A DNA stretch of 64,000 nt from Euglena gracilis (taxonomy: Eukaryota). Below, piece after piece: positions 54,501 through 63,860 of this stretch; within the stretch, counting starts at the first letter, position 1, and the number at the start of each line of letters is the position of its first letter. The notes beneath the pieces are model-generated. The model searched no databases and had not been told where the DNA came from. It saw only the letters and a program-made list of their open reading frames with translations. The DNA is taken from NCBI GenBank assembly GCA_039621445.1, contig CP154954.1:27927735-27991734 (forward strand), given 5' to 3'. The position numbers and the translations under genes were made by a program.

Positions 54501-57500
54501 TGGGCGGAATGGCTTCAAAATTGTGCTATGAAACATACTTTGGGGGGATTTTTTTTAAAAAAACACGCTGGCCATTTTTATTGGCTCTGGCGCCTTCGGC
54601 GACCCCCCCCCCTCCCTGAGGGGGATCGAAAATGCCCTAAACCCCCCCAAATACAAACCCCCCCGGTTTTATATTTGGGCGGGAATTTCACGACCCCCGC
54701 GGGGGTTTTATATTTGGGGGGGTTATATTCGGTCGGAAAAATCAACTTTTTGGAGGGACCCAGCAGTCATTTTTTCGGTCCAAATCACAAATATGTCCAC
54801 CCCTGAGGGTCCAAAAATTTCACTTTTTGGGTGGAGGAGCAATTTTCACATTTTTGGGTAAAAATTGAAATCACGCCCGAATATGAGGCCAGGGGAGTTT
54901 GCTCCTTGGGGTGTATTTCTGGCATCTGCACGCAGGGTGCTATTCTGGAGCGTGCCGATTTGCGCGGAGCAGATTTGACTGGGGCCATGGTTGGTGTGCA
55001 TCCCTGCATGCTGATGTGCCACTGCCGTGTAAATGGTGAACCTCAGAGGCTATTATTTATCAAACAGAAAAAAGGAACAGCATTCCAGTGTCTGAGCATA
55101 TGTAGCAAGCCTAAGATGCCAAGGCACCTTTGATGTGTCTTTCCCGCACAACAGTCAGCCCGCGGCTCACTGTGGAGCACCTCTTTTGATTTCTTGCCCC
55201 TGCCCCCGGCCCGTGTGGTTGGCGAGCAGGAGGGTTGCCTCAGGATTTTGGTCCCCAACTGACACACCTACCTGGCGTATCCGCCGAAAGGGAGAGGGGC
55301 CCGAGTTGCCGAGCCCCATTTTTGGACACCCTGACGTCCGGGGGTGGATCTCGAGACCCGGGCTCGTCCTGCCCCCCCCCCCCCGCAGATGGGCTGGTCA
55401 AGGCGTTCGACGGGGCCCCGGACTGCGGCGCCGGCACGCTGGTCGCCCTGTCCAGCGACGGCCGGCTGGTGGCGTCGTGCGCCGACGAGCGCCACGTGCG
55501 CCTCTCCCTCGCCGCCACCGGTGTGGGGAGGCGGGGCAGGCGGGGATGGGCGAGAGGGCAGGCCAAGGAGCAAACAAAGAATTTCCGGAAGCCAACGGAG
55601 GTCCTTTCCCATCAGGTCCTCCCCAGTGGTCAGTGGTCAGAAAGAACATAACAATTCTGTCTGGGGAGTGTCATGCCTGTAGCACATCGCTGCTTCGCTC
55701 CACACTTGTCGCTGCATTCCCTGGCAGGGGAGACGCTGCGCACCATCGCCACGGACTCTGTGAAGTGCCTCGCCCTGTCCCCGGACGGCTTCACCCTGGT
55801 CGCCATCTCCAAGGAGCGCGTGGTGCGGCTGTGGAAGACGTCCTCCGGTACCCGCCCCACCCCTTTCCATTCCACCGTCACTGATATCTCTGCCAATGTC
55901 GGCCATGGCAGTAAGAAAGCAAGTGGCGCTCACCGTGTCCGGCGCTGTCCTCGGCGCAGGCGAGCTCATCAAGCGGTTGACGGTCGCCCCGAAAGGCGTC
56001 ACCAGCATCGCTGTTTCCGGCGGCCAGCGCTGTCCCCCGCCTGCTCTCCTGACCGAACACACACCCTTTGGTGGTTTCGAGAGGGTGCGTTTGGGCCATT
56101 GGATCCCCTCAGGGGGATTCAGTTCAACCCAAACAAAGCAAGGCAATCAGAGCGTTGGAATGAATCACCTCTCTCCGGGGCAAACAGCTGGGCTTTAGCA
56201 GCTTGCCTTCTCCCTGTGGGCCGTGGAGACCTTCCATCCAGCTTGTGCCCAGACACACTCTGGTGGGTGGTTAGTTTGAGGTTTGGGGTCTTGGTTTGTT
56301 GGTTGGTTTTGGGGTGTAAGGGGGGACGGCCCTGCCAGGCGACGCCTCCACCATTGTGTTCGGGTGCAACTACGACCTGGCGCTGGTGTGGAACGCCACT
56401 GCAGGTGCTGCCCGCCCCACCCAAACCCCACTCCCGTGATGTTGATATTGGCTCAATCTTGGTGTCTGGTTTTTTTCTTCAGGTTGGCAGAATGAAGAAC
56501 GGATTGGCGGACCTCCCCTCGCTTTCGCCTGGTCTGTTGCTGAGTCACCATGCGGTCTATCCCCCTCCCCGCAGACCAGCAGGTGTGCTCACTGACCGGC
56601 CACGCGGGCTGCGTGGTCGCCGTCGCCATCTCCCCGGACGCCAGCAGCTGCGCCACGGGCTCCACCGACCGCGGCCTCCGCGTCTTCAACGCCCACGACG
56701 GTCTGCCCCCGTCCCCCAGGGGCCACCGTTTTGCAACGGCTCTACCCACGGGAGGGGGGGTTGCTTGAGGGACCTTCCCCCCCCCCCAACGTCCCTCCAT
56801 CCGCCTCACTCCGCAGGGCGGCTGATCTGTACGATGAAGACCCACTCCGAGACGTTGACCAGCATCGCCATGTCCACCAGCGGCACCTTCGTGGTGTCCG
56901 GGGCGGAGGATGCCGCCATCTGCCTGTGGAGCATGCCAAAGGGTGCGGCCGTTGGCTGCCCCCCCCCTTCCAAGTGTTCAACAGGACTGCGTCCAACAGC
57001 CTGCAAATCTGGACGACGCACTCTGCCAAACTGCACCGTCTGTTGTTTGTTTGATTCTGAAATTGAAACGCACGGCTCGCATTATAAGCCCCCACCCCTA
57101 AACAACCAGCGGGCCTCTGTGCCCACCCACCATCAGGCCCCCCAACACCCCAAATGGTTGGAAAAAAACACTCAAGTTGCATATTTTGTATTTTTTGCAT
57201 AATGAAAATTTTGGGAAACTGGCATTTTTTAGCATTTTTTGCATTTGCATTTTTTTCAGGTGCCCAGCCCCTGGATGGATGGCTGGGCAACCCATCCCCT
57301 CCAACCTGTAGACCTGTCTCCCAACCATATTTTTGAGAATGTTTGCATCTTGCAGGGTGTTTCTTGTGTTTGAAGTTTTTCAGGCTTCTGATCAAAACAT
57401 GTGTCAGCTGGGGTCGAAAACGCCAGTTTTCCCCTGACCCAACCCACCCAGGAAATTATCCTCGGGTCCCGTGCTCGCTAACCCGTCCCTTTGGGGACGT

Positions 57501-63500: not shown

Positions 63501-63860
63501 CCTGGGGGGGTCCAGCCAGCAGCTTTTTTTTGCCAGCTGGAGGCTGGACCCCCCCCCCGGGGGTCCTTAAGAAAACCCCTGTTCTGTACTGAAATTACAA
63601 ATTTTCCCCGATTCCAATTGGCCCTCCCCCCTGCTGCATGTCGCACTCCATCCTTCATCCTCCTCCATTAACGTGTTGTTCACCTGCTGCCCCGGGGCGG
63701 CGGTTGTGTTGCCCACATCTCCGGCGGTGCATGGCAGGGGCGCTGCAGATGGTGCTGCGGCACAAGTTGTCCGTGTTGGCGGTCGCCATCTCCCACGATG
63801 GCCGCGTCGCCGCGACTGCCTCCGAGGACTTGACCGTGTCCATCTGGCGGACCGCCACAG
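44173..63860 (+). CDS. NLR-like STAND protein: uncharacterised N-terminal region, NACHT NTPase, pentapeptide repeats and at least 10 WD40 repeats (continues past window end)
   Basis: Walker A VLVLVSKP|GMGKT (exon ending 47181, next starting 47312); Walker B LVLVLDSVDE (~47910-47940); LVVTCR and FLQGFS (48880-48970); TSPWKL (~49640); FRHKSLQEYLV (to 50397); AAISMTLLSAAGVLFQ|GKDLSKINVPGAVLHYADLQGCNLSGANLRGVDLK|GAILERADLRGADLTGA (51044-51199, 52014-52117, 54936-54993); WD40 exons from 55389. Confidence 0.88.
45456..45514. repeat. (TTTA)n microsatellite
   Basis: Read directly from the sequence. Confidence 0.95.
47422..47832 (+). other. Non-conventional intron with TGG/CCA end pair
   Basis: aat-TGGGGCATGG pairs with CCATGCCCCA-ccccc; joins FTRH|ALANH in frame. 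Confidence 0.65.
48190..48619. mobile_element. hAT-type MITE inside an intron
   Basis: Termini CAGGGGTTT/AAACCCTTG; flanks GCGTCAGC/GTGTCAAC (6/8). A related copy at ~63157-63581 has flanks TTCTGTA/TTCTGTAC and has lost its left TIR. Confidence 0.7.
49978..50122. repeat. Degenerate copy of the GAGGCTCTAGAGCCTC palindrome family
   Basis: Contains GTTCAAGGAGGCTCTTGAGCCTCCTCGAAC. Its terminus GAGCATCCTCCTACGGAGCATCCTCGTAAC resembles 35123-35156. Confidence 0.75.
51330..51962. repeat. Degenerate short-period repeat (TGTGGAAC/ATTGTG-like) inside an intron
   Basis: Dozens of imperfect TTGTGGAAC/ACATTGTG motifs. Confidence 0.8.
53154..53762. mobile_element. hAT-type MITE with internal CCGCGG subrepeats
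   Basis: TIR CATACTTGCAGTTAGTGCG/CGCACTAACTACAAGTGTG; perfect TSD GGCTGAAG (53146-53153, 53763-53770). Confidence 0.9.
56022..56340 (+). other. Non-conventional intron splitting a 126-nt WD40 exon unit
   Basis: ggc-CAGCGCTGTCCCC pairs with GGGGACGGCCCTG-ccaggc (N6). Flanking exon halves sum to 126 nt. A shifted GC-AG reading would give the same mRNA. Confidence 0.75.
59757..61428. mobile_element. TA-flanked poly-C/G TIR MITE hosting Helentron-like copy 2
   Basis: TA|AACCCCACCCCCCACTTATAAACC ... GGTTTATAAGTG(n)TT|TA. Confidence 0.65.
59793..61083 (-). mobile_element. Helentron/DINE-1-like element, copy 2 (inverted)
   Basis: Reverse complement of copy 1, including both subterminal IRs, the 5' hairpin, the central repeats and the ACTATTCAAAA(C/T)CTGGT tail. 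Confidence 0.75.

Follow-up and report, generated by a model that had tools for sequence, protein, structure and literature searches.

The locus and its gene

A 64,000-nucleotide stretch of the Euglena gracilis genome (GenBank assembly GCA_039621445.1, contig CP154954.1, positions 27,927,735 to 27,991,734 of the forward strand), referred to below as the window, ends in a gene of NLR-like architecture whose WD40 repeats are encoded in units that all begin and end at the same codon phase. The gene lies on the plus strand, occupies at least 44.1–64 kb of the window and continues past its end; ten consecutive WD40 units are found at 55389–63860 (Table 1). The layout had been described in a preliminary description of this DNA as one suited to exon shuffling in a non-self sensor. 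The evidence presented here points to an old array, probably assembled from copies of one exon-intron unit, which has kept its order.

The 27 exons between 45225 and 63860 splice into 1058 codons without a stop. They are rich in GC (69%, with 91% at third codon positions, GC3), against 51% in the introns. The main reference for the gene model is P0001, a 1603-residue transcript-derived protein with 14 WD40 units, which is colinear with the window from ~38.2 kb to 63860. Its accession carries the prefix GGOE01, assigned to Euglena longa in the accessible part of 10.1101/573709.

RNA was placed on positions 44001–64000, taken from one contig run in each of three studies and from the raw reads of a further RNA run (~5% sampled); the splice joints, letter differences and loose ends reported here are the 15 of 220, 40 of 74 and 24 of 918, respectively, that were listed. 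Each study yielded one spliced contig of the gene (n = 3; 4751, 4810 and 4898 nt), each listed joint is crossed by 4–11 raw reads, and expression in ordinary RNA-seq is steady and low. Five of the nine joints between WD40 units were seen among the joints listed (W01/W02, W03/W04, W04/W05, W08/W09 and W09/W10), while the joint preceding W01 was seen in one run. The joint inside W08 (59644/62346) is unambiguous, with three contigs and five raw reads. The remaining four inter-unit joints fall outside the listed set and were placed from the ends of contig pieces, colinearity with P0001 and the open frame. Since a 255-letter loose end stands behind 63861 in the RNA, the mRNA extends past the window.

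Table 1. Coordinates of the NLR-like gene, its WD40 units and selected introns within the window. A slash separates the two sides of a splice joint; identity refers to the P0001 unit of the same number.
Feature	Position	Strand	Structure and evidence	Identity to P0001 unit
Further possible exons	38215–38283, 43555–43638	+	tblastn with P0001	
5′ coding exons (approximate)	~44170–44260, ~44797–44907, ~44987–45058	+	tblastn of P0001 residues 147–331; 44170 marked by a contig piece and a loose end; RNA joint at 45058	
ART-like N-terminal domain	45225–45373, 45652–45854, 46173–46235, 46371–46461	+	RNA joints, open spliced frame, alignment with Pfam ART proteins; nonconventional introns between	
P-loop NTPase (NACHT-like)	46991–47178, 47309–47420 (Walker A, GMGKT), 47832–47974 (Walker B, LVLVLDSVDE), 48843–49026	+	RNA joints, translations	
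Post-NTPase helical region	49259–49298, 49591–49713, 50202–50396, 50704–50808, 51040–51199	+	RNA joints or pieces; P0001-guided junctions, three outside the listed joints	
Pentapeptide-repeat exons	52014–52117, 54936–54993	+	2818-nt GT-AG phase-0 intron between; P0001-guided junctions	
WD40 unit 1 (W01)	55389–55520	+	132 nt, single exon with both ends in phase 1; joint 55520/55728	56%
WD40 unit 2 (W02)	55728–55847	+	120 nt, single exon	80%
WD40 unit 3 (W03)	55960–56019, 56339–56404	+	126 nt, two exons; P0001 colinearity, 63-letter piece left of joint 56404/56575	83%
WD40 unit 4 (W04)	56575–56700	+	126 nt, single exon	93%
WD40 unit 5 (W05)	56817–56942	+	126 nt, single exon	79%
WD40 unit 6 (W06)	57640–57765	+	126 nt, single exon; contig piece ends	88%
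WD40 unit 7 (W07)	58199–58324	+	126 nt, single exon; contig piece end	81%
WD40 unit 8 (W08)	59578–59644, 62346–62404	+	126 nt, two exons; joint 59644/62346 in RNA	81%
WD40 unit 9 (W09)	62542–62667	+	126 nt, single exon	76%
WD40 unit 10 (W10)	63738–63860	+	123 nt, single exon; joint 62667/63738	78%
Ten boundary introns	54994–55388, 55521–55727, 55848–55959, 56405–56574, 56701–56816, 56943–57639, 57766–58198, 58325–59577, 62405–62541, 62668–63737	+	GT-AG, phase 1	
Intron within W03	between 56019 and 56339	+	319 nt; register ambiguous over 7 positions (56016–56022 / 56336–56342); CCAG and CCTG end motifs; terminal pairing -3.1 kcal/mol	
Intron within W08	59645–62345	+	2701 nt; GC..CC ends, phase 2; CCAGC at +3..+7, GCTG at -9..-6; terminal pairing -7.2 kcal/mol	
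Intron after W10	63861–64000 (window end)	+	begins GC; 3′ end outside the window	

Domain architecture

The protein consists of an ADP-ribosyltransferase-like (ART-like) domain, a NACHT-like P-loop NTPase, a helical region, pentapeptide repeats and the WD40 array, in this order. With an N-terminal domain, a P-loop NTPase and a WD40 array in one polypeptide, the label NLR-like, already used in the preliminary description, is a fair one for the architecture. The WD40 profile of Pfam matches P0001 as a whole with E 3.4e-84, and the pentapeptide profile (PF00805) is matched above its cut-off both by the window (51995–52141; 33.5 bits, E 3e-8) and by P0001 (42.4 bits, E 5e-11).

The NTPase is recognized by its nucleotide-binding motifs. 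Walker A has the general form GxxGxGK[ST] and Walker B the form hhhhD[GAS]hDE, and both are present in the spliced translation of the window. No single exon of the window matches the NACHT profile; the relative P0027 does so with 31.2 bits, and several relatives carry a precomputed PF05729 assignment.

The N-terminal domain (~290 residues) gives a weak match to chain B of the PDB entry 6drh (E 0.066). Its profile gathers 295 proteins at E <= 1e-3, and nine of the ten short matches tested are Pfam ART proteins (36.8–62.9 bits). The Arg and Ser motifs of ART proteins are retained in the alignment. The third motif, E-x-E, is the catalytic motif of R-S-E ADP-ribosyltransferases; it reads E-A-P in the window protein and in P0001, E-Q-L in P0004, and is intact in P0002 and P0003. 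Because a proline replaces the catalytic glutamate, the domain of the window protein probably serves as an adaptor or is no longer active as a transferase, as judged from the sequence. An AlphaFold2 model of the domain, built from a four-row alignment, was too poor for use (mean pLDDT 48.6, core below 50). PADLOC was uninformative, with the WD region alone matching one candidate model, HEAT-ARM_XIII.

The WD40 array

The lengths of the ten units given in the preliminary description, 120–132 nt with seven of exactly 126, are confirmed to the letter: the spliced units measure 132, 120, seven times 126, and 123 nt. All ten are symmetric (1-1), each opening with two bases and closing with one base of a split codon. 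Eight consist of a single exon and two are split by an extra intron. The units could thus formally be exchanged without a frameshift, as had been noted. The statement that they are bounded by canonical introns of one phase holds for all ten preceding introns, which are GT-AG and phase 1; it needs amending for W03 and W08, each of which carries an additional nonconventional intron, and for the intron after W10, which starts with GC.

Exon and repeat coincide closely. All eight single-exon units match the Pfam WD40 profile (PF00400; E 5.9e-9 to 0.034), five of them alone exceeding the 27-bit cut-off. The matches begin at profile position 3 in six of the eight and end at positions 37–39 of 39 in all eight; one exon therefore corresponds to about one Pfam repeat plus a three-residue linker.

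Two classes of intron

All ten introns that precede a unit share the form G/GT..C-rich tract..CAG/G and interrupt, in phase 1, the codon of the linker glycine (or aspartate). That ten of ten boundaries fall in one alignment column and one phase cannot be due to chance. Conventional introns (GT/GC-AG) account for 12,186 of 28,337 E. gracilis introns, or 43%, in the accessible text of PMC11170887; at this genome-wide share, the probability that ten boundary introns are all conventional is 0.43^10 = 2e-4.

The introns inside W03 and W08 are of another kind. Both interrupt the same repeat loop, the one after the first strand, at codon ~21 and codon 23, respectively. The traits of euglenid nonconventional introns, as set out in the available portion of PMC11170887, are variable non-GT-AG ends, a CCAGG-like motif at +3..+7, a CCTG-like motif near -9..-6 and pairing termini; the intron within W08 fits them in its ends, motifs and pairing. 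Pairing of the termini is also predicted for 11 upstream introns, at -3.6 to -11.7 kcal/mol. The two classes are partitioned along the gene: from the pentapeptide region onward 12 of 14 introns are GT-AG, compared with 2 of 13 upstream (Fisher p = 4e-4).

Boundary introns of such uniformity are most simply read as a probable footprint of array assembly. A different origin would be parallel or secondary gain, in which an intron-free 14-repeat array took up conventional introns independently at a G/G proto-splice site in the linker glycine codon. The exon context ..G/G.. is indeed common to all ten boundaries, blastn found no similarity among the boundary introns, and the same domain order with ~14 units occurs in Sorangium and in fungi of the Mortierella group. 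Such a history would nevertheless require ten of ten independent insertions at one codon position; the introns that are clearly later, those in W03 and W08, are nonconventional rather than GT-AG; and the missing similarity among boundary introns is equally expected after an old duplication. Parallel gain is therefore regarded as unlikely.

Two introns carry repeats. In the intron at 59645–62345, high-copy repeats extend over 59780–61420, with 2.8 tandem copies of a 158-nt unit at 59901–60343; the contigs of the RNA runs reach a summed word depth of ~14,500 over 60009–60675. The intron at 52118–54935 has high-copy repeats at 53100–54700 and 33-nt arrays at 53175–53315 and 53576–53728. Dispersed repeat pieces common to these two introns are the sole intron similarity seen.

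Conservation in Euglena longa and in more distant relatives

Over 1057 residues, the spliced product of the window and P0001 share 80.4% identity. Identity is even along the chain (N-domain 78%, helical region 79%, pentapeptide region 83%, WD part 79.5%), so the WD part is not more diverged than the rest. Window units 1–10 pair with P0001 units 1–10: in register they are 56–93% identical, in all other pairings 14–48%. The odd unit lengths of 44/45, 40 and 41 residues are likewise the same in both proteins. Within each array the repeats are far less alike, with a mean identity of 27.6% (range 12–40%) among the ten window units and 30.9% among the 14 units of P0001. A comparison of units within and between proteins revealed no within-protein excess for P0001.

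The gene belongs to a family of 27 clusters that share the N-domain at E <= 1e-30. All seven relatives from the euglenid family with fully resolved arrays have 14 units. In P0004, 12 units were detected; the Sorangium homologue has 14, and the fungal homologues have 10–13 over spans that fit ~14. Two metagenome scans, one using P0001 and the other the N-domain alignment, yielded no confirmed relative. The most uniform repeats of the family are those of P0022, at a mean identity of 51.5% and a maximum of 66.7%. In this 2186-residue protein a kinesin motor domain (E 1.3e-85) precedes the ART-like/NTPase/WD40 body, which may be a genuine fusion or the result of merging gene models.

Is the array shuffled or alternatively spliced?

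The preliminary description had suggested that exon shuffling or alternative splicing may diversify the specificity of the presumed sensor. Within their scope, the data do not support this, and the three kinds of observation that could have revealed it, isoforms, unit order and selection, all speak against it. Among the joints listed, the assemblies of three studies contain one transcript form with all units, rare isoforms being possible beyond this set. Number and order of the ten units are the same as in the E. longa orthologue. Where the RNA contigs depart from the window, 17 of the 40 listed differences lie in exons of the gene model and 23, in intronic, repetitive or unmodelled sequence, were set aside; those in the WD region, which may reflect strains or alleles, comprise nine synonymous changes and one nonsynonymous one, compared with three and four upstream. 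The listed WD-region differences would fit purifying selection. The accompanying remark that the repeats are divergent and any shuffling may be old does fit the data, with units ~28% identical to one another.

A search of the 64-kb window in six frames, using a hidden Markov model (HMM) of the units, found no relic or inverted WD-like exons; the best match outside the exons scored 5.9 bits (E 1.2). A possible decayed half-unit at 59663–59722, out of frame directly after the first exon of W08, was rejected, its score (4.1 bits, E 4.6) being at noise level.

That the gene encodes a non-self sensor still diversified today, through exon shuffling, gain and loss of units or exon-skipping isoforms, appears very improbable in this light. 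The modules are symmetric and seven are identical in length, the family has many members (27 clusters), the repeats of P0022 are more uniform, and a contig present in two runs links unrelated sequence to the latter half of unit 4. These points are outweighed by the unit number and order shared with E. longa, the 14 units in seven of seven resolved relatives, the absence of relic exons in the window, the synonymous character of nine of the ten listed differences and the single transcript form among the joints listed in three studies. A closed propeller also tolerates the loss or gain of a blade less than an open LRR or TPR solenoid does, which counts against continuing diversification. Internal identity is 27.6%, against ~85% in fungal nwd genes (PMC4986451, in its accessible part). 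Finally, canonical exon skipping is almost absent from E. gracilis: for 28,337 introns and 18,643 mRNAs, the available text of PMC11170887 gives 11 skipped-exon events, of which a single one is canonical. The evidence is thus that the array has not been shuffled, at least since the two Euglena lineages split.

The contig just mentioned occurs once in each of the runs X1 and X2. It fits the window only from 56639, inside unit 4, and at least 255 unrelated letters precede this point. The break falls in the repeat loop that also holds the nonconventional introns of W03 and W08. The contig could be the transcript of a paralogue or partial copy, a chimeric contig or an alternative joint.

Proposed history and function

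The reading that we favour, and to which we assign a probability of roughly 0.6, is that the window holds the 3′ part of an expressed STAND/NLR-like gene in which a WD40 unit of exon plus intron was copied long ago and the array then became frozen at 14 units. The unit would have been duplicated in tandem together with its intron, or recombination would have spread an intron-bearing unit among repeats that still resembled one another. This array building would have taken place long before E. gracilis and E. longa separated. Afterwards, the array would have been held at 14 units by purifying selection, and the nonconventional introns of W03 and W08 would have been inserted later.

Several results weigh against this history or the identity of the gene. 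The 14-unit array and the order of NACHT, pentapeptide and WD40 regions are common to fungi and a myxobacterium; the array may therefore predate the introns, which would then have been added or spread later. The WD units of paralogues lack in-register similarity (z -1.5 to 1.9 in 21 pairs), and old rearrangement inside the family may have occurred. The splice evidence covers the 15 of 220 joints listed, and minor isoforms would lie beyond that scope. Two domain assignments fall below Pfam cut-offs: NACHT (PF05729) in the N-terminal part of P0001 scores 20.6 bits (E 4.2e-4; cut-off 26.7 bits), and ART (PF01129) scores 19.3 and 18.6 bits in two paralogues (cut-off 22.3 bits) and has no match in P0001.

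The 14 repeats of the array, ten of them within the window, would make up two propellers of seven blades each. On the model of other STAND proteins, these propellers may bind a ligand, whose binding would release NTP-dependent oligomerization, and oligomerization would in turn bring the N-terminal domains together.

A putative immune role has a competing explanation. The gene may encode a conserved STAND ATPase with a housekeeping or signalling task, whose NLR-like domain order is incidental, a view that we hold to have somewhat less than even odds. One-to-one orthology with even conservation over all domains would be expected of such a protein, as would the mostly synonymous variation of the WD part (among the differences listed), the steady low expression in ordinary RNA-seq and an ART-like domain without its catalytic glutamate. 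What speaks for a receptor is the order of ART-like domain, NACHT and repeats, which, together with the family of paralogues, resembles NLR-like repertoires.

A broader proposal would see in all ART-NACHT-pentapeptide-WD40 genes the innate-immune receptors of euglenids, with propellers built, and in some paralogues still re-assorted, by duplication and exchange of whole phase-1 WD40 exons; paralogues such as P0022 have the more uniform repeats, and the gene of the window would be an old, frozen member that keeps the modular layout. We consider this a speculative idea with a small chance of being correct.

The gene provides no evidence for somatic or evolutionary diversification of a receptor by exon shuffling. 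Its main value lies in the history of its introns and in the documentation of an undescribed euglenid family of NLR-like STAND proteins with an ART-like N-domain. Conventional introns at the repeat boundaries look old and the nonconventional insertions secondary. Together with the loci of paralogues, this would allow the two intron classes to be dated relative to each other and duplication to be tested against parallel intron gain.

Other features of the window

At ~13500–25400, the plus strand carries another multi-exon gene, with exons that are acidic and rich in lysine. One exon matches the Kri1 profile below its cut-off (21.5 bits, E 3.5e-4) and another the Kri1_C profile (E 0.035); from these similarities it is probably a KRI1-like ribosome-biogenesis gene.

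At 45375, the first base of an intron of the NLR-like gene, loose ends of runs X1 and X2 show a T-run ending in CG directly upstream of sequence that fits the window from 45375; this sequence is similar to the euglenid spliced leader at its 3′ end. Positions 45447–45523 were skipped as repeat. These loose ends may belong to another transcript or to a repeat.

At the C-runs 44771–44790 and 63476–63494, raw RNA reads in the hundreds terminate in long poly-C loose ends, and contig joints connect these two positions with each other and with 61349–61370. A low-complexity artefact or a dispersed element is the likely source of both the read ends and the joints. Two copies of another repeat, a dispersed element, are found upstream of the gene (41572–41730, minus strand) and inside its largest intron (60940–61062, plus strand), with translations that share ..AGIMVIIR.F.R...

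Comparison with known systems

One-phase arrays with one repeat per exon are already known from LRR and TPR receptors of brown algae and from LRR genes of Tetrahymena, and NACHT-WD40 NLRs are known from fungi. A literature search for Euglena NACHT/WD40 genes found no paper on such genes, and a search on repeat-per-exon arrays found none describing a WD40-per-exon array. What is new here is the WD40 form of the repeat-per-exon layout, in a euglenid, the combination of ART-like, NACHT, pentapeptide and WD40 regions, and the clean separation of intron classes within one gene.

Among the closest known systems are the fungal NLRs of the nwd/HET-E/HET-D type (Podospora anserina), which are alike in having a separate N-terminal domain and a NACHT-type P-loop nucleotide-oligomerization domain (NOD) ahead of an array of WD40 repeats, each 42 residues long. 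Their repeats are ~85% identical, vary in number and undergo concerted evolution and positive selection, according to the accessible parts of PMC4986451, PMC1805685 and PMC2873952. In contrast, the units described here have a mean internal identity of 27.6% with a maximum of 40%, and their number and order are fixed with respect to E. longa. The N-domain is ART-like instead of HET, a pentapeptide segment separates the NOD from the array, and introns stand at the repeat boundaries. The same order of NACHT, pentapeptide and ~14 WD40 repeats recurs in Mortierella-group fungi (Linnemannia, Benniella) and in Sorangium. These homologues, compared as proteins, have other N-terminal domains; their identity is 24–30% over 20–60% of the N-terminal region used as query (E 1e-10 to 6e-4).

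The layout itself resembles that of the ROCO-LRR and NB-ARC-TPR genes of Ectocarpus, candidate receptors that also have one repeat per exon with frame-preserving boundaries. Their repeat exons are of one length, introns and the opposite strand hold noncoding relics of such exons, and the number of repeats varies among recent duplicates (PMC3341825 and PMC11378527, in the portions available). Neither relic exons nor differences in repeat number were found here, and the WD40 repeats would close into a propeller, in contrast with the open solenoid. The LRR genes of Tetrahymena share the arrays of equal-length repeat exons and the bias to one phase. As given in the accessible text of PMC6564038, these are arrays of 90-bp exons with an extreme one-phase bias, read as the clonal expansion of an exon-intron unit. 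They differ in that the repeats are LRRs in phase 2, with tens of thousands of exons in fast-evolving, species-specific genes, whereas the present case concerns WD40 repeats in phase 1 in one conserved orthologous gene.

At the N-terminus, the window protein resembles the R-S-E ADP-ribosyltransferases (PF01129; solved relative 6drh/6dre chain B) in its Arg and Ser motifs and differs from them by having E-A-P in place of E-x-E. The introns conform to the classes of E. gracilis in the accessible part of the survey PMC11170887: those at the boundaries are GT-AG with a C-rich tract, and the others have variable ends, a CCAG-like motif and pairing termini. The sharp partition of the two classes within one gene, with the conventional class at every repeat boundary, does not appear in that part of the survey.

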